Shown here piece after piece: positions 1,177 through 11,677 of a stretch of DNA of 64,000 nucleotides; position 1 is the stretch's first letter; every line of letters begins with the position of its first letter. Origin of the DNA: an uncultured Bacteroidota bacterium (GTDB lineage: Bacteria > CLD3 > SB21); assembly GCA_964415295.1 (NCBI GenBank), contig CAYPYN010000003.1, positions 294,417 through 358,416 of the forward strand, given 5' to 3'. Position numbers and translations under genes: made by a program. Under the pieces are notes generated by a model that had not been told where the DNA came from, ran no database searches, and saw nothing but the letters and a program-made list of their open reading frames with translations.

Positions 1177-2901
1177 TTACTTTAAGTGGGCATGACAAGA
1201 TGAACACTTCGTATCTATCGGTTTGTAAACCGTCGTTACGATGCCGTTATTCAGAGTGACGCTCCGATGACACTTCACGCATTCGATCTTCTCGTGCGCC
1301 CCCGATAAAGGAAAACGCGACTGACGCGTATGGTCGAATGCCGCCGGTCTGAATCCGTTCTCGTTATGGCACCGTTCACATGGCGTGTCTCCCGACATGG
1401 TTTTAAACTGACCAAAATGAAAATCCGAATGACACGATTCACAGGCCGACGAAAGGCCTTTGTATTGGGTGTCCGAACTCTGTCCGGTGGAAGTCTTGTG
1501 ACACTTAACGCAGCCGACTTGGGCGTGTTTACCTTTCAATGGGAAGGCTGAATCTTTATTATGATCAAATAGGAGTTCATTCCAGGCATCCGTCCGATGG
1601 CATGACTCGCAGCCTGTTTTTGAGACCTTTTCTTTGAATTGGTCTTTGTGAATGTCTGTGTGGCAATCCGCGCAAGCCTTCGCCAAAAAGCGGAATACAA
1701 CGGTCGGTTCGGCGGGACGCGAATTCAGGCCGGTCCTCTTGCCGAATTCGTCTCCTGAGAGCCGATCATGGCACTGGTTGCATCCGACGGCCGCGTGAGA
1801 GCCGGTCAGTGGGAATTGTGAACCGGCGTGATCCGTGATCGAAAATATAGAAGGAGTGAAGCCGTTCGTGTTATGGCAGCGTTCACATCGGCCCTGGTCG
1901 GGTGTGGAACTAAATTGTTCGGCGTGGTTAAACTTGTGGCAATCGCGGCATTCGACGTACTTCAATCCCTTGAATTGCGCCTTTTTTTTGATGTCCGGCT
2001 GATGGCATTTTTCGCAGTTGACGGAGAGATGTTTGCCGGTCAATGGAAAGTTGGTCTTTGAGTGATCAAAGCCGCTTACTGTGACGTTTTGCCAGCCGCC
2101 GGGCACATGGCACTTTTCGCAGGTTTGACCAAATTTGTTGTTGTGCGGGTCGGTATGGCAAACGGTGCACTTATCGAATCTCATATCCGAAAGATTCATA
2201 TAATCGGGGTCGACCTGCCCGTTCGGCTTTTTTCTTGAGTCCGGAACCAAAACATGGCACTGCTCGCAGGAAGCCAATGAATGCCTTCCGGTCAAAGGGA
2301 ATCGGGTATTGCTGTGGTCAAATTTGGCTTCAACAGATCTCTTCCAGTCTTCGAAATCATGACATTCCGTACAAGGCTTTGTCATGTGGTTTCGATGTTC
2401 GTTAAAATGGCAATGGCGGCAGTCCTGACCTAATCCGAGGAATGTCCTCGATAATGAAAGTCCTTCGGCCGCCCGGTTCCGAACGGCATTGTCCTTGATG
2501 AATTCCGGTTTGTGGCAGCTTTCACACCTGGCGGTCTTGTGCTTACCTTCGAGCACGTATCCGGTTTGATCGTGCGAAAAACCGGTTTTGCCTCCTTCCC
2601 ACCTGATCATATCAAATTGACGACCTCTGTGTTCGGTGTGGCACTGAATGCATTCTTTATTTCGTACGGACGCTGAGCCGTGGAAGCCTTTATTCTGATC
2701 GATGCGGGACCGCAGCAGAGCATGGCACTCCAGGCATTTAGTCTTGTTGATCTTCTTTCCCAGATCATGGCATTGAGTGCATTGATTCATTCCTTCCAGA
2801 GAAGCGTGGGCATTGGTGAGGTCACCCGGCGAGAATTGGGCAAAAGCATTCCATGATAAAAGCAACAGCAGTCCGGTCGTATGTTTGAGAATGTGTTGCA
2901 T
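1177..2901 (-). CDS. Multiheme c-type cytochrome, 574 aa, 20 CxxCH motifs, Sec signal peptide (..WNAFA-QF).
   Basis: 20 CxxCH counted in the translation. Repeated c7-like modules F(D/S)HxxTxFPLxGxHxxxxCxxCH. Paralogous to the 589-aa MHC at 5106..6875 (near-identical N-terminus QFSPGxLTxAHASLEGxxxCTQCHDLGxKIN). Confidence 0.9.
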   Translation of the reverse strand: MQHILKHTTGLLLLLSWNAFAQFSPGDLTNAHASLEGMNQCTQCHDLGKKINKTKCLECHALLRSRIDQNKGFHGSASVRNKECIQCHTEHRGRQFDMIRWEGGKTGFSHDQTGYVLEGKHKTARCESCHKPEFIKDNAVRNRAAEGLSLSRTFLGLGQDCRHCHFNEHRNHMTKPCTECHDFEDWKRSVEAKFDHSNTRFPLTGRHSLASCEQCHVLVPDSRKKPNGQVDPDYMNLSDMRFDKCTVCHTDPHNNKFGQTCEKCHVPGGWQNVTVSGFDHSKTNFPLTGKHLSVNCEKCHQPDIKKKAQFKGLKYVECRDCHKFNHAEQFSSTPDQGRCERCHNTNGFTPSIFSITDHAGSQFPLTGSHAAVGCNQCHDRLSGDEFGKRTGLNSRPAEPTVVFRFLAKACADCHTDIHKDQFKEKVSKTGCESCHRTDAWNELLFDHNKDSAFPLKGKHAQVGCVKCHKTSTGQSSDTQYKGLSSACESCHSDFHFGQFKTMSGDTPCERCHNENGFRPAAFDHTRQSRFPLSGAHEKIECVKCHRSVTLNNGIVTTVYKPIDTKCSSCHAHLK

Positions 2902-2975: not shown

Positions 2976-4280
2976 TTAGCGCAAGTAATAGTTCATTCTT
3001 ATGAAAACGGACGTATGGGGATCGGTGGCATTACCGATTTCCTCCGATGCCGTCAGAGCTCCGAAAAAATCTCTGGTGATCCTGTAACTCACATCGGCAC
3101 TGATGATCGACAGAAGATGGTTGCGGGCCGGCGTTTTGATATTCCACTGATACGTGTTCAGATTATAGGTCATCGTCGCATCGAGTCTGTTCTGCAGAAA
3201 ATCCCGGTTGAACCACAGCGCCGTCTGTATGTTTCTTAGCCATTGATTGGATGTGTAAGAGGCACTGATGCCGGTATTGAGCCGCACCCAAAAATAATTT
3301 CTATAACCGGTCCGAAGATCTGCGTAAATCAGATCGCCGTTACCGAACCGTTTTTTGAGAGTTGAAGAGATATCCAACATGCCGATCCGCGGATTATAGT
3401 AGGCGCGGTAATTGGTTGTAAGCGATACGTTCTTTTCGGTCGAAGAGTAAAAATATTTATCGGACGCATTTATCGTGTCCGTTCGTGTAAGAAAATGGGT
3501 TGTCCGGTTACGGTAGTCAAAGGTTGTACGGAAATTGAGTGATTTGTTGAAACGGTAATACACCGACGACTGTGAATAACCGATGAGGCTTTCATTGACA
3601 ATATATTGGGTTCGGTGATACAGGCGGAGGTTAGTAACTGGCTTATAGTCGCCGTACAAGTAGGCTTTCGTCAATGATGTGGACTCATACTTTTCGGCCG
3701 TAAATCCGAGGCCGGCCGACCAGAGGTTGTGCAAATGAATAAGACTGCCGCCGTAGTTATATCCGCGGCCCGTCGGATCGTTGCGGTAAAAATCGTTGAT
3801 CGTTCCGCCGAAAGCCGATAGATCGAACAGGTTGCCCAGCCGTATATTTTCTGCGGATACACCATTGATTGGGTAGGCGTCCACTACAGGCATGAGCGGG
3901 ATAATACGTCCAGCTTTGACTTGTCTGAAATTGTCGCCGTACGCGGCGTAAAGCTGCTTTACGATATAACGGTTTTGAAATCTTTGTCCTTCGGTTATAC
4001 CTTTCGTTCCGGTAAAGGTGTTTTTTTCATAATAGTCTATCTTGAACTGGTATTTGACCGCGCCAGAATTCGCATCAAATATCCGGTAATTCAGCATCGC
4101 GTAGTTGCTCAACGCGTTCAGGGACGACGAAGCGCCGGTTTGCGAATAGTAATTCCAAGTGGTTGATAAACGGCCGACAAGGTTCTTTCCGACGGGCATC
4201 GAAGGATTTTGCGCACCCACCGTCGCGTCCGCCAGGATCAGTAGAAATATCGTTTTCATGAGTATATCAAGATATTTCAT
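2976..4280 (-). CDS. Outer-membrane beta-barrel protein, putative porin partner of the cytochromes (~434 aa from the Met at 4278-4280; the ORF track extends it to 4331).
   Basis: Signal peptide MKYLDILMKTIFLLILADATVGA-QN. Rich in Y/N/T/G/S, with alternating hydrophobic/polar short strands typical of beta-barrels. Its start codon overlaps the stop of the upstream MHC-9 (ATGA at 4278-4282). It sits between multiheme cytochromes. Confidence 0.65.
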   Translation of the reverse strand: MKYLDILMKTIFLLILADATVGAQNPSMPVGKNLVGRLSTTWNYYSQTGASSSLNALSNYAMLNYRIFDANSGAVKYQFKIDYYEKNTFTGTKGITEGQRFQNRYIVKQLYAAYGDNFRQVKAGRIIPLMPVVDAYPINGVSAENIRLGNLFDLSAFGGTINDFYRNDPTGRGYNYGGSLIHLHNLWSAGLGFTAEKYESTSLTKAYLYGDYKPVTNLRLYHRTQYIVNESLIGYSQSSVYYRFNKSLNFRTTFDYRNRTTHFLTRTDTINASDKYFYSSTEKNVSLTTNYRAYYNPRIGMLDISSTLKKRFGNGDLIYADLRTGYRNYFWVRLNTGISASYTSNQWLRNIQTALWFNRDFLQNRLDATMTYNLNTYQWNIKTPARNHLLSIISADVSYRITRDFFGALTASEEIGNATDPHTSVFIRMNYYLR

Positions 4281-5044
4281 CAGTCGTCTCCTCCCTCGCC
4301 CTTGTGATCGAAGTCGTGGCATTCCCGGCATGTGTAAGTGGAGTAGTCGGGCGCATTCCGGTGGCAGGTTTCGCAGCTGCGGCGGTGATGACCGGTCAGC
4401 GAGAACCAGGCGTCAAGGTGCGGATAATCGTTCCAGCCGTTCATGTTGTGGCAGGCGAGGCAATCGCCGAGAGCTTCCCATTGCGCATGCTGAGGAGGAG
4501 CTCCGATGGCCCGGTGGCAGTCGGAACATTGATTCACATTGGGCATCTTGAATGTTATCAGATTACGGTGGCAATCCGCGCAATCAAGTCCGCGATGTCC
4601 TCCGATCATGATAAAGGTCTCACCGGTGTGATTGAAGGTCGAAGGCGCCCAGGCTTCTTCATTGTGACACCGTTCGCAATCGGGTCCGAGTTCGCCCTGG
4701 TGGGGCTCTTTGTGGCAGACGGCGCACTCGCGTATGGAGGTGTTGAACTTTCCGCCGGCGTGGCAGCTTTGGCAATTGGTTCGCTCATGGGCGCCGCGCA
4801 ATGGGAATCCCGTTTTCGTGTGGTCGTAATCTACATGCGGCTTTATGACTTTCCAGGAATCGGTGGTATGACAAACCTCGCATGGGAATTCAAACCGCTT
4901 GTGCGGAATTTTTACAAACGGCGTATCCGTTACCGCAAAATGTAATTCCGGCGATGCATTCACGTTCCAATCCAAATTGGCAGGGGCGGTGCCGAACCAA
5001 AGAGTCATACCGACGATCAGGCCGGCGAGAATGTTTTCACTCAT
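4280..5044 (-). CDS. Multiheme c-type cytochrome, 254 aa, 9 CxxCH motifs, with an N-terminal hydrophobic segment (signal peptide or membrane anchor).
   Basis: CEVCH, CQSCH, CAVCH, CERCH, CADCH, CSDCH, CLACH, CETCH, CRECH. Same module order as the partial MHC at 1..1169 (CxxCH..W..FDHxKTxFPLxGxH..CxxCHA..F..CxxCHxxxHxGxLGxxCxxCH). Confidence 0.9.
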   Translation of the reverse strand: MSENILAGLIVGMTLWFGTAPANLDWNVNASPELHFAVTDTPFVKIPHKRFEFPCEVCHTTDSWKVIKPHVDYDHTKTGFPLRGAHERTNCQSCHAGGKFNTSIRECAVCHKEPHQGELGPDCERCHNEEAWAPSTFNHTGETFIMIGGHRGLDCADCHRNLITFKMPNVNQCSDCHRAIGAPPQHAQWEALGDCLACHNMNGWNDYPHLDAWFSLTGHHRRSCETCHRNAPDYSTYTCRECHDFDHKGEGGDD

Positions 5045-5105: not shown

Positions 5106-6875
5106 CTATTTTAGCTCAAAAACGCCTTCGTGTTTATCCGGATGACAGGAGGCGCAATCCGACGCGACCGGTTTGTATAACGTGATGAGCGAGTCCGATT
5201 CTATTTTTGTGAGAACATGACACTTGGCACAGTCTACTTTCCGATGGGCGCCCGTCAAAGCAAAGACCGATTGTGTGTTGTGATCAAACAAGGAAGGTTT
5301 GAATTTCTCGGCATTGTGGCACCTCTCGCAATACGTGAGACGCCCGGACTCGACCGAATCGGTCTTTTGGGCAAACTGACCTTCGTGCACATCCTTGTGG
5401 CAGCTTTCGCAGAAGTTGGAGACCGGTTTGTATAATACCCATTTGGCCGGCGTACGGTCGTCCTGCGATTTATGGCATTTCTCGCACTTCGCCTCCTTAT
5501 GTTTCCCCAAAAGCGGGAATTCGGAGTCCTTGTCGTGATCAAATACCAAGTCCTTCCAACCTGTCACTTTATGGCAGATGTCGCAGTCGTATTTTTTGAG
5601 CTTTTCTGCAAATTGTCCACGGTGAATATCCGTGTGGCAAGAACCGCATTTGCGATCGGTGAATTTGAATAGCATCGCCGACGAATCTCCGGGTGCGGCT
5701 AAACCGGTTCGGGTTTTGAACACCGCCGGTTCCAGCTTGACATGGCATTTATTGCAGGTCGTTTTAATATGCGCGCCGGCCAGCACGTATTTCGACTCTG
5801 TGTTATGGCGTTCAACAGTGAAAAGCGAAGGAACGAATCCGCTCTCGTTATGGCATGCTTCGCATTTTCCTTTGTCAGCGCGGGAAGAAAACTGTCCGGC
5901 GTGAGTATCCTTGTGGCAATCCGTGCATTTGGAGAATGACATATTCTTGTAGGCCGCCGGTTTCTTCGGATCCGGCTGATGGCATTTGTCGCAGGCCACA
6001 TGCCGATGCTCTCCGATCAGCGGGTAACGCGTCTTATTGTGGTCAAAACCCTCCATCACGACGTGAGTCCACCCTAAAGCGTCGTGGCACTTGACGCAGT
6101 TCCGGCCAAATTTGTTTTGGTGCGGATCCTTATGGCAGGGCGTGCAATTGGAGAAATCCAGCTTCTTGTAATTCGCAAAATTCTGGTCCGTACTGCCGTC
6201 GGGTTTTTTCCGTACGTCTTCGGTCAGGGCGTGGCATTGGACGCATTCGACTTTTTGGTGCCGTCCGATAAGCGGATACTTTGTTTTACTGTGATCAAAT
6301 CTCGTCTTCACCGACTCTTTCCAGTTGTCAAAGTCATGGCATTGGCCGCACTTAGGATCCAGTTGTCCCCGGTGCTCATCAAAGTGACACGTCGCGCATT
6401 GCTGGGACAAACCCAGATGCGTATTTTTGATAGAGACAGTGACGCCGGACTGCAGTCGGACAGTAGGGGAAACAATTTGTTCGGGTTTATGGCATTTTTC
6501 GCACCGATCGGTCTTATGTTTACCTTCCAGTTTGTACCCTGTGAGACTATGATCAAAGGCCGACTTACCGCCCTCCCATCGGATCATTTTGAATCCGCGG
6601 CCCTTGTGTTCGAAATGGCAGGCGATGCACTCTTTAGAGCGAACGGAGGAGGAAGCGTGGTATCCTTTTCCGGCATCGACGCGCTCTTTGAGTTCCACAT
6701 GGCATGAAAGGCACTTCTGTCCGTTGATCTTCTGGCCGAGGTCATGGCATTGTGTGCAGTTGTCGGTACCTTCCAGAGATGCGTGGGCCTGAGTCAATTC
6801 TCCGGGTGAGAATTGAGCACGGGCGCTCGTTCCCGACAAAACAGACAAAGCCAAAGCGATCAGAACGCGTTTCAT
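5106..6875 (-). CDS. Multiheme c-type cytochrome, 589 aa, 20 CxxCH motifs, signal peptide (..SARA-QF).
   Basis: 20 CxxCH counted. Paralog of 1177..2901. Confidence 0.9.
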   Translation of the reverse strand: MKRVLIALALSVLSGTSARAQFSPGELTQAHASLEGTDNCTQCHDLGQKINGQKCLSCHVELKERVDAGKGYHASSSVRSKECIACHFEHKGRGFKMIRWEGGKSAFDHSLTGYKLEGKHKTDRCEKCHKPEQIVSPTVRLQSGVTVSIKNTHLGLSQQCATCHFDEHRGQLDPKCGQCHDFDNWKESVKTRFDHSKTKYPLIGRHQKVECVQCHALTEDVRKKPDGSTDQNFANYKKLDFSNCTPCHKDPHQNKFGRNCVKCHDALGWTHVVMEGFDHNKTRYPLIGEHRHVACDKCHQPDPKKPAAYKNMSFSKCTDCHKDTHAGQFSSRADKGKCEACHNESGFVPSLFTVERHNTESKYVLAGAHIKTTCNKCHVKLEPAVFKTRTGLAAPGDSSAMLFKFTDRKCGSCHTDIHRGQFAEKLKKYDCDICHKVTGWKDLVFDHDKDSEFPLLGKHKEAKCEKCHKSQDDRTPAKWVLYKPVSNFCESCHKDVHEGQFAQKTDSVESGRLTYCERCHNAEKFKPSLFDHNTQSVFALTGAHRKVDCAKCHVLTKIESDSLITLYKPVASDCASCHPDKHEGVFELK

Positions 6876-7483
6876 TTTACGTTTCCTAACATGGATCTGG
6901 CTTTGGAGGCGAACTCAGAATTGGGCTGCAGTTCTATCGTTCTGGAAAAATAGGTTCTCGCGGCATCGGTCTTTCCGATATTGGCATGAATCACGCCCAG
7001 GTTGAAAGTGGCCGTTATGTTGCCTTTATCACCGGCAAGAATCGAGTTAAGTTCGGCGATAGCCTTTTCGGGATTTCCGGAATTGAAAAAGCACACCGCG
7101 TAGTCATTGCGAACGTTGTTGTTGCTCGGATCGATGGAGAGGGCTTTGCCGTAGGGTTCGATCGCGTCTTTAAAGTTACCGTTATCATAAAGCAAGTTGC
7201 CAAGCTGAATAAGATGTTCCAGGTCGTTCGGGTTTTTTTGTAACTGTTCCTTGAGCATTTTGATATTCATCAGCGCGTCGTGATTGGACGGAACGGATTT
7301 TCCTGTTATCGATGAAGCTTCGGAGGAACCGGTTCCTCCAGGCATCGGGACATTCATCGACGGTTCATCGTGATGGTGGGTATCTATCCTTTCAGTTGGT
7401 TCGTCCTTATAAAGGATGAGAATAGCCACGACCATAAAGACTCCGCCAAAAACAAGCGGGTAAAGATTCTTCTTGGAATTCAT
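6872..7483 (-). CDS. Membrane-anchored TPR-repeat protein (CcmI/NrfG-like TPR; possible cytochrome maturation or complex-assembly factor).
   Basis: One N-terminal TM helix (LVFGGVFMVVAILILY), then TPR-like repeats (GNLLYDNGNFKDAIEPYGKALSIDP..). Embedded in the cytochrome operon; overlaps the downstream gene by 4 nt. Confidence 0.55.
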   Translation of the reverse strand: MNSKKNLYPLVFGGVFMVVAILILYKDEPTERIDTHHHDEPSMNVPMPGGTGSSEASSITGKSVPSNHDALMNIKMLKEQLQKNPNDLEHLIQLGNLLYDNGNFKDAIEPYGKALSIDPSNNNVRNDYAVCFFNSGNPEKAIAELNSILAGDKGNITATFNLGVIHANIGKTDAARTYFSRTIELQPNSEFASKARSMLGNVK

Positions 7484-7496
7484 AAATCTCCTGCGG

Positions 7497-8375
7497 TTAA
7501 AAGATCCAGGTGTATCCGAATAAGAAAGCTACAACGATATGGGCGATCAAGATCACACCCATAATGATCGTAAAAGGCATGTGAATCACGTGCCAGTGCC
7601 GGAAAAGCTTTTGCACGGTCACGAGGGTCTGAATTTGACGCTGGATTCGCGACCGGTCCAGAAACAAATGTCTGACGGCATACAGATGTTCGTGGGCCAC
7701 GTTTTGCAGTTCGAGGTGTTTTATGGCACGGTGGATCTGGAAATAGCGTTTGATATCGTACCACATGAGCTTGGGCAATGTGGTAAAGAAGGAAGCCCGT
7801 TCATCAGAAACAAATGCAAATGTCAGGGCATCAAAGCTCTGAATTTGTTCTTTTGCCAATCCGTACTCCGTCGACAGCGTTTGAGTTATCAGATTGAGAT
7901 GTTTCTGGAGTTCCGATGCGGTCAGATCCTTTCCCGAAAGACTTTTGGGAATAAGGAGGTAGATATACCGGCCCAGAATGCCGCTCGCCACGACGCAGAC
8001 CATGCTCCAGAAGCTGACGGCCACGATGCCGCCGAATTTGAAGGCCGAATGGTAGAGTATGAGAGCCGGTCCCAAGAGGCAGAGAAATATGTGGAACTCC
8101 AGAACGTGTTTGATCTGCCCGAAGCCGGCAAGCAGGCTCCAGCGCTTGCGCAATGAATAAAGAGCCACGCCAATGATCATCATGAAAGTTCCGATGAATC
8201 CCATACCGTGACCCCAGAAACCGACCGGGCTCAGGTTTTCGTGCATGGGATGAAGATTGCGTTCTTCGACAGGTGTGGCGTAATAGTCCGAACCGTAATA
8301 ACCGATCAAAACGACGGTGCCCAATCCGACGACCGTCATGGTCCATATGAATATGCGGTGTGCAATTTTGTTCAT
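7497..8375 (-). CDS. His-rich 4-TM integral membrane protein, 292 aa. Putative di-heme b-type quinol dehydrogenase / membrane electron carrier. Paralog of 9272..9823.
   Basis: Predicted TM helices with invariant His (HEF, ILYHS, HWHVIHMP...IAHIV). Clear alignment to the 183-aa protein (AYSLRK, HEF, L(I/V)xH, SG(I/L)xG(R/K)Y(I/L)). No family recognised by eye. Confidence 0.6.
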   Translation of the reverse strand: MNKIAHRIFIWTMTVVGLGTVVLIGYYGSDYYATPVEERNLHPMHENLSPVGFWGHGMGFIGTFMMIIGVALYSLRKRWSLLAGFGQIKHVLEFHIFLCLLGPALILYHSAFKFGGIVAVSFWSMVCVVASGILGRYIYLLIPKSLSGKDLTASELQKHLNLITQTLSTEYGLAKEQIQSFDALTFAFVSDERASFFTTLPKLMWYDIKRYFQIHRAIKHLELQNVAHEHLYAVRHLFLDRSRIQRQIQTLVTVQKLFRHWHVIHMPFTIIMGVILIAHIVVAFLFGYTWIF

Positions 8376-8402
8376 GTGTTCTTTTGCGTTTGTCCAAATA
8401 TA

Positions 8403-9281
8403 TTAGTCGTCATTTTCCTTATGTTTAGAGTCGTGTCTGTCCCGGCCGTCTTTCTTGACTTCGTGTTTGTTTCCGCTGCGGTGACAACGCACGCAGTTCT
8501 GGTAGTCGCTGATACCTTCCTCCTCATGTTCCTCGCGGATCTTGGCGGGTGAGTGCTCGTGGCACCCGTAACAGGAATAGGAACGGAAATCATCTTTGGT
8601 ATGGCATGTGGCGCATTCCGTCCGATGGTCTTTGTCAAATCGGAAGTACCGGTCGTGATCATACGTTGCCGGTTTCCATGCTTCGGTAGTGTGGCAATGT
8701 CCGCACGCCGTGTCTATAAGCCGGTGCAGCGCATCCTCCGGCTTGTTATGACAAGCGGTACACGCCATCTGCCGGGACGAATCCAATACGGCATGATCAA
8801 AACGCGCCGGTTTCCAAACCGTAATGTCATGGCAGTGGACGCAGGATGCAGAAATGACCCGGTGAATCCGGTCACTAGGCCGGCTGTGGCACTGCTCGCA
8901 TCGGCTTTTCAGAGAGTCCGGTAAGACGTCGTGGGAAAAAGTACGGCCGGCATAATGGCGCCCAAGATGGTCCAAGTGGCATGCAGCGCATGGCTGTACT
9001 TCCAATTGTCTATGAAATGCCGCCGGCTTTCCAGTTGAGTCCATAGGTGTACCGTCGACTTTGAATAGACCGATCTGCTCGGGTCGATGGCATGTTACGC
9101 ATTTGTCCCGCGTAATTCCGCGAAATGCGGAATGGCAGGCAAAACAATCGTTATCTATTTGTTGATGCGCCAAGATCAGATCGCCCGGATTAAGCATGGG
9201 TTCCGGATAATACAGCATGATAGCGGTATAACCAACGCCTGCCAGAATAGTCATGAGGAGCATCAGCCATTTCATCGCCAT
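8403..9281 (-). CDS. Multiheme c-type cytochrome, ~293-320 aa, 10 CxxCH motifs, N-terminal TM anchor. Start probably at the Met at 9281 or 9275.
   Basis: CFACH, CVTCH, CAACH, CEQCH, CVHCH, CTACH, CGHCH, CATCH, CYGCH, CVRCH. Hydrophobic N-terminus WLMLLMTILAGVGYTAIMLYY. Confidence 0.85.
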   Translation of the reverse strand: MAMKWLMLLMTILAGVGYTAIMLYYPEPMLNPGDLILAHQQIDNDCFACHSAFRGITRDKCVTCHRPEQIGLFKVDGTPMDSTGKPAAFHRQLEVQPCAACHLDHLGRHYAGRTFSHDVLPDSLKSRCEQCHSRPSDRIHRVISASCVHCHDITVWKPARFDHAVLDSSRQMACTACHNKPEDALHRLIDTACGHCHTTEAWKPATYDHDRYFRFDKDHRTECATCHTKDDFRSYSCYGCHEHSPAKIREEHEEEGISDYQNCVRCHRSGNKHEVKKDGRDRHDSKHKENDD

Positions 9282-9823
9282 CCCCAAAATATAAAAATCG
9301 TCAGTATGTGAAGAAATGCCAGCAAACAAAAAAGCAAGGTAATGGGAAGATGCACCAACCTCCATTTTTTCATTAACTCAAAAGTGACGGCATTCAGAAA
9401 CACGCTTTTTCCCGTTTCCTGGGTCCCTGTGGATTCAAGTATCGTCTGAGAGCGCTTGAGCAGATATTTCCCCGTCAGGCCGCTTACAACAGCCATCACC
9501 ATGGCCGCCAGACCATACCAAGGAAGCCAGGCGTTGAAATGAATACCGCCATGGACCAGGATCATCAGGGAACCCGACCACGCGAGAAATTCATGCCAAC
9601 CCAGCAGGGTTTTATGAGAGCCTTTTGAGATGAAGTTGTACTTGCGAAGAGAATAAGCAAAGGATGCGAGAATGAATAGCGCTCCGGATATTCCAAAATA
9701 GCGTCCTATCCAGGCATAACCTAAAACATGAAGAATCCAATCAACCAGAATGGCGCCTCCGATCAATGCACCAAATAGGATCGTAAGAGGCAGGATATCT
9801 TTGAATAATAGAGTATGCTTCAT
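9272..9823 (-). CDS. His-rich 4-TM integral membrane protein, 183 aa; paralog of 7497..8375.
   Basis: Four hydrophobic helices with conserved His (ILHVLGY, GWHEFLAW, LVHGGIHF, LVHLP..FLHIL). Confidence 0.6.
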   Translation of the reverse strand: MKHTLLFKDILPLTILFGALIGGAILVDWILHVLGYAWIGRYFGISGALFILASFAYSLRKYNFISKGSHKTLLGWHEFLAWSGSLMILVHGGIHFNAWLPWYGLAAMVMAVVSGLTGKYLLKRSQTILESTGTQETGKSVFLNAVTFELMKKWRLVHLPITLLFCLLAFLHILTIFIFWGWR

Positions 9824-9835
9824 TTTAACTACTCG

Positions 9836-11158
9836 TTAGAACACTCTTTCTTTCTGCATGAATTCTATTCCGATCTTTTTAAGGAAGGGTGTCGGTAATT
9901 CGCCGCCCGCAAAAACAAACACAAAATCGTTTTCGATCTCCTTGTCGCCATCCGTTGTTTGGATGATTACAGACTTTTCTTTGATTTCCTTGGTAGTCGA
10001 ATTATAAAAGATCTTGATCAGGCCGTTGGCTTCGGCCTCTTTGATGCGATCCTGATTTTTTTGTTTGGCTTTTGGAAAGGCATCTCCCGTGTTAACCAGA
10101 GAAACGACTGTGCCCTTTTGTTTGGAAAGGCCGACGGCCGCTTCCACGCCGGCGTCACCGGCTCCGACGACCAGGAGCTTGCCGTTCTCATATTTGCCGG
10201 CATCGATTAACTGGTAAGTGACTTTTGAGGTATTTTCACCGGGCACGTTTAGTTTTCGTGGAGTACCGCGCCTTCCTAATGCGAGTACGAGATTATTGGC
10301 AAGAAATTCGGCTCCGGAGGCTGTTTGTATGCGGAGGTGTCCGTTTTCCCGAGTAACGTTTTCGAGTTTCTGATTGCATTGAACGCTCAACCCGGTCTTT
10401 ATGATGATATGATTCCACAATTCCAATAATTCTTCCTTACTCAATTCCTTCTTACGCATCCATCCGTATTTCGGGATTTCAACCGGCACCGTCATCACCA
10501 GTTTCTGGCGGGGATAACTTAGTATAGCTCCTCCGGGCGTATCTTCTTTTTCGATCAGGATGTAATTGAGTTCATTCTCGATCGCTCTGAGTCCGGCGCT
10601 GAGTCCGGCGGCTCCTGCACCTACGATGGCGACGTCGTATACGCCCGCGGTTCGTTTCGAAGCCTGGTATCGGGCCTTTTCCGAGATCGCATCGATCACA
10701 TGTTTCCCCTGGAAGATCGCATTGCGGAGAAGGGCCATACCGCCGAGTTCGCCGATCAGATAGACATTCGGGATATTGGATTCATACGTCTCATCAAGCA
10801 GAGGTATTTCAGCGACCGATTTGGTGGGATTCAGCACGATCTTGATTCCGGAGACCGGACAGGCTTCGGCGCAAATGCCGTGGCCAACGCATTTGGCCGG
10901 CAGCACAAGTTCTGCAACGCCGTCGATCAGTCCGAGAGCGCCTTCCGGGCAAGCGATCACACAGGATGAACAACCAATGCACAAAGACTGGTCCACACGC
11001 GGATGCTGCGCAACCGGTTTGTCTTTGCCCAAGGCTATGGCCTGATCGCGCTTCTTTTGCTGTTTCTTACTGCTCCGGCGCACGATGACGACATACGGAA
11101 CAAAAATGATTAATAGCAGTCCAACGGACAGCAGCAGCGTCCACAGCGATTCGTTCAT
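9836..11158 (-). CDS. Membrane-anchored 2x[4Fe-4S] ferredoxin domain fused to a TrxR-like FAD/NAD(P)H oxidoreductase (FNR-like flavoprotein).
   Basis: N-terminal TM helix. CIGCSSCVIACP and CVGHGICAEACP cluster motifs. GxGxxG dinucleotide folds VAIVGAGAAGLSAG and LLVVGAGDAGVEAA. No CxxC redox disulfide. Confidence 0.8.
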   Translation of the reverse strand: MNESLWTLLLSVGLLLIIFVPYVVIVRRSSKKQQKKRDQAIALGKDKPVAQHPRVDQSLCIGCSSCVIACPEGALGLIDGVAELVLPAKCVGHGICAEACPVSGIKIVLNPTKSVAEIPLLDETYESNIPNVYLIGELGGMALLRNAIFQGKHVIDAISEKARYQASKRTAGVYDVAIVGAGAAGLSAGLRAIENELNYILIEKEDTPGGAILSYPRQKLVMTVPVEIPKYGWMRKKELSKEELLELWNHIIIKTGLSVQCNQKLENVTRENGHLRIQTASGAEFLANNLVLALGRRGTPRKLNVPGENTSKVTYQLIDAGKYENGKLLVVGAGDAGVEAAVGLSKQKGTVVSLVNTGDAFPKAKQKNQDRIKEAEANGLIKIFYNSTTKEIKEKSVIIQTTDGDKEIENDFVFVFAGGELPTPFLKKIGIEFMQKERVF

Positions 11159-11254: not shown

Positions 11255-11677
11255 CTATTCCGGCTTGTAGGTCTTTATCATGACAAGATGGATCGTCACG
11301 GCGACGGCAATAGCGACGAGCAGCGCACCGACGTACCAGGGCATAGAGGTAGAAAAAATGGAAATCGTGATCGTAACCCACAAAACAAAAATCGAAGTGA
11401 TCTTGACTGAAAGAGGAGTTCCGCGGTTCTCTTTGTAGTCTTTGATTAAACGGCCGAAGTAGCGGTTGTGCAGTAACCAATGGTAGAATCGGGGCGAACT
11501 GTGCGCGTAACATGTCGCCGCCAGAAGCAGAAAGACCGTGGTGGGCATAAGCGGAAGGATAGCTCCGATAATTCCCAGTCCGACGAAGATGTGCCCCGAG
11601 AAAATGAGAAAGGTCCGGCTCAGCCGGCTCATTTCTTTATCTTCCGTTTTCTTATCTTCTTTGGAATAGTTCGTCAT
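11255..11677 (-). CDS. YbaN/DUF454 family inner-membrane protein.
   Basis: Small 2-TM protein with GHIFVGLGIIGAILPLMPTTVFLLLAA, typical of DUF454. Confidence 0.65.
   Translation of the reverse strand: MTNYSKEDKKTEDKEMSRLSRTFLIFSGHIFVGLGIIGAILPLMPTTVFLLLAATCYAHSSPRFYHWLLHNRYFGRLIKDYKENRGTPLSVKITSIFVLWVTITISIFSTSMPWYVGALLVAIAVAVTIHLVMIKTYKPE

Follow-up and report, generated by a model that had tools for sequence, protein, structure and literature searches.

We analysed a 64,000-nucleotide (nt) stretch of DNA (the window) from an uncultured Bacteroidota bacterium (GTDB lineage CLD3; SB21; contig CAYPYN010000003.1 of assembly GCA_964415295.1), and within it two small minus-strand membrane proteins, A (183 amino acids (aa), 9272–9823) and B (292 aa, 7497–8375), each of which we predict to be a putative di-heme b cytochrome with five transmembrane (TM) helices. 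On balance, with a little better than even confidence, we lean towards A and B being the middle subunits of a three-part, quinone-independent, split NOX-like complex, through which an extracellular export conduit of the PCC3 porin-cytochrome type encoded in the window would be fed from NAD(P)H. We offer a broader proposal more tentatively, rating it somewhat short of even. It holds that a modular quinone-independent complex of a TM-anchored NAD(P)H-oxidising flavo-iron-sulfur (Fe-S) protein, a five-TM di-heme b wire and a multiheme cytochrome c with its own TM anchor is widespread, reaching from Proteobacteria (with an FNR/2Fe-2S donor) and Bacteroidota-type organisms (with a TrxR-fold/Fe-S donor) to metal-resistance plasmids, and that PCC3-type clusters are NAD(P)H-fed exporters, not Fe(II)-oxidising quinone-linked systems.

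An earlier note on this DNA had taken the two open reading frames (ORFs) for paralogs with four TM helices each, and the first half of that description holds. BLASTP aligned A and B in two collinear segments (E 1e-4), and comparison of their family profiles with hhalign gave a probability of 97.9% (E 5e-13); judged by sequence, the two are distant paralogs. They share the motifs YSLRK(R/Y) and SG(L/I)xG(K/R)Y, as had been noticed; a third proposed motif, HEF, does not align (WHEF in A vs. EFHI in B, with H77 of A equivalent to H95 of B). Instead of four helices, the AlphaFold2 model of A has five long ones (residues 5–33, 37–62, 70–92, 99–131 and 138–179), and all five segments align in B. A crude hydropathy scan gave overlapping peaks, missed TM2 and TM3 of A, and is only broadly consistent with five TM helices. 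The cytoplasmic insert ascribed to B is real, being a helical TM4–TM5 loop of ~120 residues, ~85–90 more than in A, and the periplasmic TM1–TM2 loop of B is also the longer one. On the sequence of A, 11 Lys/Arg residues fall in the TM2–TM3 and TM4–TM5 loops and 2 in the opposite loops and the C-terminus, a distribution from which the positive-inside rule predicts an N-in, C-out topology. The A family comprises 276 homologs at 90% clustering, with 1854 representatives recovered by the family profile at E≤1e-3; the B family comprises 2152 homologs, and those bearing organism names are mostly Bacteroidota or Ignavibacteria-type. The superfamily of five-helix inner-membrane proteins to which A and B belong is large and uncharacterised.

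Across A, B and a third subfamily described below, only four histidines are invariant: H77, H91, H158 and H172 of A, corresponding to H95, H109, H265 and H279 of B. They form two His-x13-His pairs, one on TM3 (H77/H91 in A, H95/H109 in B) and one on TM5 (H158/H172 and H265/H279), and are conserved over thousands of homologs; the note's count of about four invariant histidines, and their placement inside predicted membrane helices, agree with this. Each family taken alone has six invariant histidines (32, 77, 91, 95, 158 and 172 in A; 6, 95, 109, 262, 265 and 279 in B). In the predicted topology of A, TM3 and TM5 run parallel; H77 and H158 come to lie close to the cytoplasmic side of the membrane and H91 and H172 close to its periplasmic side, an arrangement known from the heme pairs of NOX/FRE and cytochrome b. 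Because one histidine of each pair lies at each face of these parallel helices, we read the pairs as bis-His ligands: A and B most likely each bind two b hemes between TM3 and TM5, one near each membrane face. Neither protein contains a CxxCH motif, which sets them apart, as had been pointed out, from NapC/NirT/CymA, where c-type hemes are carried on a single-TM rather than a five-TM protein. Of the two further histidines invariant in the A family, H32 sits at the periplasmic end of TM1 and H95 at that of TM3. Counterparts exist in the third subfamily (a His at the end of TM1 and an HxxH after TM3) but not in B. These residues could serve a third heme, a metal, or contact with a heme of the partner cytochrome.

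When A and B were scanned against Pfam and NCBIfam, no family reached threshold. The A-family profile had no match among all Protein Data Bank (PDB) sequences, and the B-family profile returned coiled-coil noise only. Foldseek found nothing significant for the A model in the PDB, and no six-TM superposition on solved NOX or STEAP structures was obtained. Scanning family members one by one gave sub-threshold matches to three families. DUF4405 (PF14358) matched weakly in 11 of 22 A members and 7 of 24 B members, mostly over the last helix (best E 1.1e-4; best score 23.1 bits in P0077, with a gathering threshold of 26.7), and the window copies give none. Ni_hydr_CYTB (PF01292), which the window copies do not match either, reached E 4e-5 and 23.9 bits in P0261 and 19.4 bits in P0002 (threshold 30.1). 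Ferric_reduct (PF01794) aligned its profile positions 1–66 with TM2–TM3 of P0002, the closest relative of A (19.8 bits, E 8.4e-4); A itself scored 8.1 bits (E 3.5), and the gathering threshold is 28 bits. These three families form one Pfam clan of two-heme cytochromes. For one DUF4405 protein, heme b binding has been shown experimentally (PMC11334425). A and B therefore appear to fit the di-heme cytochrome b-like superfamily while lying outside all of its curated families. Taken together, the His-x13-His pairs on TM3 and TM5, their conservation and the weak matches to heme-b families argue well for the two bis-His b hemes that the earlier note had proposed.

The note's description of A and B as novel was overstated. 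He, Barco, Emerson and Roden described an inner-membrane protein (IMP) that is conserved in the porin-cytochrome clusters PCC3 and PCC4, with five TM helices, an SGxxG motif in TM4 and W-x3-H-x13-H in both TM3 and TM5. In PCC3 it is ~300 aa long. These authors suggested that it holds two b hemes spanning the inner membrane, and guessed at a quinone-active cytochrome b (He et al., 2017; PMC5566968). Of these features, A and B share the five helices and the motifs on TM4 and TM5. The TM4 motif is S114-GLT-G118 in A and S131-GIL-G135 in B, with the Ser and first Gly invariant across subfamilies, and TM5 carries W154/H158/H172 in A and W261/H265/H279 in B. TM3 has H-x13-H in both, with the Trp replaced by L73 in A and V91 in B; many B-family members retain it (KHWLEFH). 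PCC3 clusters further encode a porin, a periplasmic cytochrome and a larger outer cytochrome, with median heme counts of 21 and 34 (PMC5566968), and the clusters around B likewise combine an IMP of ~290 aa, a cytochrome of ~20–23 hemes, a second one of 5–61 hemes and a secreted protein of 430–540 aa outside Pfam. Compared by description rather than by sequence, B and its cluster match PCC3 point by point, save for the TM3 Trp. They differ in host range, since PCC3 and PCC4 were described in Proteobacteria, with PCC4 also in Planctomycetes (PMC5566968), whereas the named homologs of B are mostly Bacteroidota or Ignavibacteria-type. They differ too in the proposed chemistry: for PCC3, He et al. 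suggested a link to quinone with electrons flowing inward and reported no NAD(P)H flavoprotein, unlike what we see at B loci. In PCC4 subgroup II, an Fe-S gene does lie upstream of the IMP gene. A regular-expression search for further PCC3/PCC4-type IMPs in all fetched loci returned only A and B homologs, and a tblastn search of plasmids with B and the 20-heme cytochrome, seeking a proteobacterial PCC3 cluster, returned only Emticicia and the third subfamily. The protein type is thus not new, having been noticed in 2017, and is still uncharacterised; papers from 2023 and 2025 still give the PCC3 components as functionally unverified.

What sets our reading apart is the flavoprotein that accompanies these proteins. 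In the window, a membrane-anchored Fe-S flavoprotein of 440 aa (9836–11158, minus strand), our proposed cytoplasmic electron donor, comprises an N-terminal TM helix, RRSSKKQQKKRD, a ferredoxin-like domain (cysteines 60/63/66/70 and 90/96/100) and a TrxR-fold FAD/NAD(P)H domain. It matched Pyr_redox_3 (5.6e-39) and Fer4 families in Pfam, and a YpdA-like NCBIfam model (9e-43) below its cut-off. Among solved structures it comes closest to 7a76 (deposited under the name thioredoxin reductase; 1.8e-20) and the YpdA/Bdr-type 7a7b (9.4e-16), and it also matches the TrxR-type ferredoxin-NADP reductase 3ab1. None of 38 homologs has a redox CxxC in the flavin part, which argues for a one-electron FNR-type donor and not a disulfide reductase; from its domains, the protein looks like a ferredoxin-NAD(P) reductase fused to its own ferredoxin. 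A thiol-disulfide relay, in which a TrxR-like flavoprotein would serve a DsbD/CcdA-like protein, was considered and rejected, given the missing CxxC in all 38 and the lack of a conserved Cys pair in A and B. Between residues 60 and 100, the cysteines of the window protein form a 4-Cys motif (CIGCSSCVIACP) and a 3-Cys motif (CVGHGICAEACP). The former gives way to a 3-Cys Cx5Cx3CP form in 34 of the 38 homologs (L092–L171), and such 3-Cys forms suggest [3Fe-4S] clusters or non-Cys ligands.

The A family has a different flavoprotein partner. Taking one genome per species, we found 557 relatives and analysed the best 80 loci, identifying neighbours by ORF calling of our own and by phmmer comparison with reference proteins. 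Most carriers belong to the Gamma-, Beta- and Alphaproteobacteria. An orthologous multiheme cytochrome c lies directly downstream of A in all 80 loci (with eight CxxCH in 67). Directly upstream and on the same strand, 62 of the 77 loci with enough upstream sequence have a ~425-aa TM-anchored protein with FAD_binding_6, NAD_binding_1 and Fer2 domains. The TM helix of this FNR-like partner is N-terminal and its 2Fe-2S ferredoxin domain C-terminal, and its plant-type FNR fold is unrelated to the TrxR fold. Where the FNR gene is missing from A-family loci, sensor kinases, VIT1 or FeoA take its place, and iron transporters (FeoA/FeoB fragments, VIT1, CDF efflux; L007 5913–8986, L044, L018, L001 9613–10563) are often adjacent. 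MsrQ-like proteins with NAD-binding domains have been linked to VIT1 iron transporters (PMC8238504); the same link is found at some A loci, whose iron-transporter neighbours echo this association, proposed for assimilatory iron reduction. Among the 150 best representatives, P0291, P0326 and P0363 seem at first to fuse the IMP to flavin or cytochrome domains, but look truncated or frameshifted; their NAD-binding, Fer2 or cytochrome segments beside A-like segments confirm the gene order and should not be taken for natural fusions. The N-terminal extensions of P0247 and P0249 match nothing in Pfam.

For the B family, we examined the 36 metagenome loci with at least 2.2 kb of downstream sequence. 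In 29 of them, a homolog of the window flavoprotein (Fer4 plus Pyr_redox_3) starts within 1.2 kb downstream of B. It may come directly after B, after a TPR gene, ahead of B or last in the cluster, and the association is kept. A TPR gene directly follows B in 12 of the 36, and in L010, L011, L095 and L178. Homologs of the 20-heme cytochrome, with 18–23 CxxCH where full length, lie within 3 kb of B in 23 of 25 loci, and homologs of the 9-heme cytochrome in other clusters have 5–61 CxxCH. L095 has the gene order of the window minus A and its cytochrome; the flavoprotein is therefore primarily a neighbour of B, and the pair of A and its cytochrome looks like an insertion into the B cluster. In L179 (1249–2734), a B-like and an A-like gene lie 8 nt apart with no cytochrome between them, raising the possibility that A and B can work as a pair. 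Cultured carriers of A or B relatives include Emticicia oligotrophica DSM 17448 (pEMTOL02), Noviherbaspirillum sp. ST 5-3, Thiocapsa roseopersicina DSM 217 and Amphritea pacifica.

The third subfamily (~250 aa) is found on plasmids of Alteromonas, Methylophaga, Legionella, Variovorax and Methylocystis, where its gene directly follows one annotated ‘2Fe-2S cluster-binding’. The two such products that were scanned, from Alteromonas and Variovorax, have FAD_binding_6, NAD_binding_1 and Fer2 domains. A c-type cytochrome is annotated downstream in Alteromonas, Methylophaga and Variovorax; the downstream gene is ‘hypothetical’ in Legionella, and none is listed in Methylocystis. These operons (L172 6974–10457, Alteromonas macleodii pAM1A3; L174 6899–10585, Variovorax WDL1 plasmid 3; L175; L176; L177) adjoin copper or heavy-metal resistance or hydrogenase genes. 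In the Alteromonas and Variovorax flavoproteins, the TM helix is preceded by a signal peptide and a periplasmic, Met-rich N-terminal domain of ~200 aa, and this hints at a link to copper.

An N-terminal hydrophobic or TM anchor is present in 37 of 37 TrxR-fold flavoproteins, 64 of 65 FNR-like partners and 89 of 105 partner cytochromes. Positive charges cluster after the single N-terminal TM helix of the flavoproteins, which puts the flavin and Fe-S domains on the cytoplasmic surface of the membrane. Two unrelated NAD(P)H-flavo-Fe-S modules hold an equivalent position, which suggests non-orthologous displacement of one function, and it is for this reason that we infer a quinone-independent, NAD(P)H-fed complex. 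We did not meet this conserved pairing with flavoproteins of two unrelated folds in the literature searched, and found nothing there on an NAD(P)H-linked version of the system; coverage of that literature was incomplete, so this is no proof of absence.

In the mechanism we propose, the tethered flavoprotein would oxidise NAD(P)H inside the cell and, in contact with A or B, hand electrons one at a time, via its Fe-S cluster(s), to the cytoplasmic-side heme, ligated by H77/H158 in A and H95/H265 in B. Electrons would then move to the periplasmic-side heme (H91/H172 and H109/H279, respectively), which would reduce a tethered or periplasmic multiheme cytochrome c. In the window, the onward route would lead through the 10-, 20- and 9-heme cytochromes and a putative porin to the cell surface. 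Outward flow of this kind would be downhill by both redox drop and membrane potential. It would conserve no energy by itself, and would therefore suit redox balancing, iron acquisition or metal reduction.

Several known systems share part of this design. NOX, FRE, STEAP, MsrQ and YedZ (PF01794) have two b hemes with His pairs on TM3 and TM5, as we infer for A and B, in which the ferric-reductase feature of two His pairs spaced 12–13 residues on TM3 and TM5 is present. In this superfamily, too, a cytoplasmic FNR-type NAD(P)H/FAD module feeds an acceptor outside, as proposed for A and B. It differs in having six TM helices rather than five, in a flavin domain that is fused or soluble rather than a separate TM-anchored subunit with an extra Fe-S step, and in an acceptor that is O2, Fe3+ or MsrP rather than a multiheme cytochrome. 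The flavinylation-associated cytochromes (DUF4405, PepSY-like and MsrQ-like) are, like A and B, small membrane proteins with four central conserved histidines, proposed to transfer electrons across the membrane to extracytosolic redox proteins and often linked to iron (Huang et al., 2024; PMC11334425). These have six TM helices and an ApbE-flavinylated partner, in contrast to the five helices and multiheme cytochrome c of A and B.

CbcL of Geobacter sulfurreducens, like other b/c-type inner-membrane cytochromes of its kind, also joins a di-heme b membrane module to a periplasmic multiheme cytochrome c at the start of an extracellular electron transfer (EET) chain, and A with its decaheme cytochrome resembles a split CbcL. 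The b domain of CbcL is of the HydC/FdnI (Ni_hydr_CYTB) type and is taken as menaquinol-linked; CbcL has no flavoprotein partner, and its His pattern is unlike that of A and B. The FNR-like partner of the A family resembles NqrF of the Na+-NQR complex, which has a single N-terminal TM helix, a 2Fe-2S domain and an FNR-like FAD/NADH domain. NqrF injects electrons from NADH into membrane-embedded redox centres. The domain order is TM-Fer2-FNR in NqrF and TM-FNR-Fer2 in the A-family partner. NQR delivers its electrons to quinone and pumps Na+, and genes for its other subunits are absent here.

Several points weigh against an NAD(P)H-fed export complex. A flavoprotein is missing nearby at 15 of the 77 A loci and at least 6 of the 36 B loci, and the proteobacterial PCC3 clusters described by He et al. 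(2017; PMC5566968) list none, so that for at least some members quinol, or a donor encoded elsewhere, must supply the electrons. In the literature on PCC3, electrons are assumed to move inward, from Fe(II) oxidation. Synteny is no proof of direct electron transfer, and heme binding by A and B is deduced from their sequences. The AlphaFold2 model of A is moderate (predicted local distance difference test (pLDDT) score 77.5), and that of B is poor (pLDDT 66) and unusable for a fold search.

The loci without a flavoprotein would fit with A and B being quinol dehydrogenases, as the earlier note had proposed: electrons that they take from menaquinol would reach the periplasmic cytochromes by way of the b hemes, and the flavoprotein would be separate or auxiliary. 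He et al. (2017; PMC5566968) also proposed a quinone-active cytochrome b. The Ni_hydr_CYTB family, to which there is weak similarity, contains quinone-reactive di-heme cytochromes b, and MsrQ has been proposed to use both quinol and a flavin reductase. We consider this explanation unlikely, though worth serious consideration, since we identified no quinone-site feature in A or B and none of our tests supports the claim. Quinol oxidation would also need no membrane-spanning wire, as NapC and CymA deliver to the periplasm with periplasmic hemes, and it leaves unexplained the two unrelated TM-anchored NAD(P)H-flavo-Fe-S neighbours found at most loci of three subfamilies. In another reading, electrons would run the other way, from extracellular Fe(II), minerals or a partner through the porin-cytochromes and A or B to the Fe-S flavoprotein and NAD(P)+. 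FNR enzymes are reversible in principle, PCC3 clusters occur in Fe(II) oxidisers and have been hypothesised to take up electrons, and many A-family carriers are sulfur- or iron-oxidising autotrophs (Thiocapsa, Sedimenticola, Beggiatoaceae, Sideroxydans). Electron movement from the positive to the negative side opposes the membrane potential, and reduction of NAD(P)+ (~−320 mV) by c-type cytochromes is uphill. Inward uptake would thus be doubly unfavourable, and with no coupling ion-translocating subunit in the operon we regard it as improbable.

We think it slightly less probable still that A and B are accessories of cytochrome c maturation, handling or reducing heme for the heme-rich cytochromes that the cluster encodes (compare the b heme of CcmF and the His pairs of CcsBA), with the flavoprotein as reductant. 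Maturation genes do occur nearby: a CcmH/CycH-like TPR gene follows B in many loci, CcsA is directly upstream of B in Emticicia, and Ccm genes lie near the Methylophaga copy. A and B, however, lack a WWD or tryptophan-rich heme-handling motif, and two His-x13-His pairs on parallel helices point to fixed bis-His hemes rather than a transit channel. The proteobacterial module, moreover, consists only of flavoprotein, A and one cytochrome, translationally coupled, and has the look of donor, wire and acceptor. A non-redox role, with A and B as a His-lined transporter of metals or other substrates or as structural partners of the cytochromes, seems to us very improbable. In its favour, some A loci adjoin FeoA, VIT1 or CDF transporters and the third subfamily occurs in copper-resistance islands. 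The only transporter similarity, LptF_LptG in 5 of 22 members (E ~2e-3), is far under its cut-off (17.9 vs. 27.9 bits) and covers one helix pair only, so that there is no strong match to a non-redox transporter. The exact 14-residue His spacing on two helices is a heme-stack signature, and a cytochrome c and an Fe-S flavoprotein as constant partners make for a redox setting. The same flavoproteins, of NAD(P)H type, are what lead us to prefer an NAD(P)H-fed, quinone-independent complex over quinol oxidation.

In the window, the genes for A, B and the flavoprotein belong to one tightly packed array on the minus strand, with junctions of 1–4 nt overlaps or 12–61 nt gaps. A gene for a DUF454 membrane protein (11255–11677, minus strand) lies directly upstream of the flavoprotein gene. 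A is followed by a decaheme cytochrome c (8403–9275; 290 aa, 10 CxxCH) with an N-terminal anchor or signal, in keeping with the earlier claim that each of the two proteins precedes a multiheme cytochrome. For B this does not hold, as a gene for a TM-anchored, CcmH/CycH-like TPR protein (6872–7483; 203 aa; Pfam TPR_CcmH_CycH 5.4e-13), probably a cytochrome assembly or chaperone factor, comes before the 20-heme cytochrome c (5106–6875; 589 aa). The latter has a Sec signal peptide and is proposed to be the periplasm-spanning wire. Beyond it lie a 9-heme cytochrome c (4280–5044; 254 aa), a proposed outer or extracellular cytochrome, and a secreted 434-aa protein without Cys or a Pfam match (2976–4280), the putative outer-membrane porin of the conduit, which has a homolog at the equivalent position in L095 and L178. 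Stop and start codons overlap as ATGA at the A/decaheme cytochrome and TPR/20-heme cytochrome junctions, and there is a 1 nt overlap at the 254-aa cytochrome/putative porin junction. The mechanically called 320-aa ORF (8403–9365, minus strand) is over-extended; the decaheme cytochrome most likely starts at the Met of MKW at 9275, because the ATG there overlaps the TGA of A. Likewise, the 451-aa ORF (2976–4331) probably starts at the Met of MKYLDIL at 4280.

A second set of cytochromes lies beyond the putative porin and reaches the start of the window. It comprises a 574-aa cytochrome c with 20 CxxCH (1177–2901, minus strand), 50% identical to the 589-aa one, and a minus-strand gene (to ~1170), cut off by the start of the window, for a cytochrome of 14 or more hemes (CxxCH). 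The window locus may therefore encode two outer conduits. The whole gene order, including the DUF454 gene upstream of the flavoprotein gene, the arrangement of the second cytochrome set and the flanking housekeeping genes, is kept in L178, an independent contig.

The exit of electrons from the inner membrane is the least understood step of EET outside Shewanella and Geobacter. To our knowledge, the known entry points into EET (CymA, ImcH, CbcL and CbcBA) are all treated as quinol-linked. If A and B do act as the wire of an NAD(P)H-fed export complex, many bacteria, among them Bacteroidota-type organisms, sulfur and iron oxidisers and carriers of metal-resistance plasmids, would own a quinone-bypassing, non-energy-conserving outlet useful for redox balancing, iron acquisition or metal detoxification. 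The reading of PCC3-type clusters in metagenomes, now scored as iron-oxidation markers, would change, and the compact three-gene module could be transferred to other hosts for bioelectrochemistry. The uncharacterised PCC3 inner-membrane protein, for its part, gains a concrete, testable partner.

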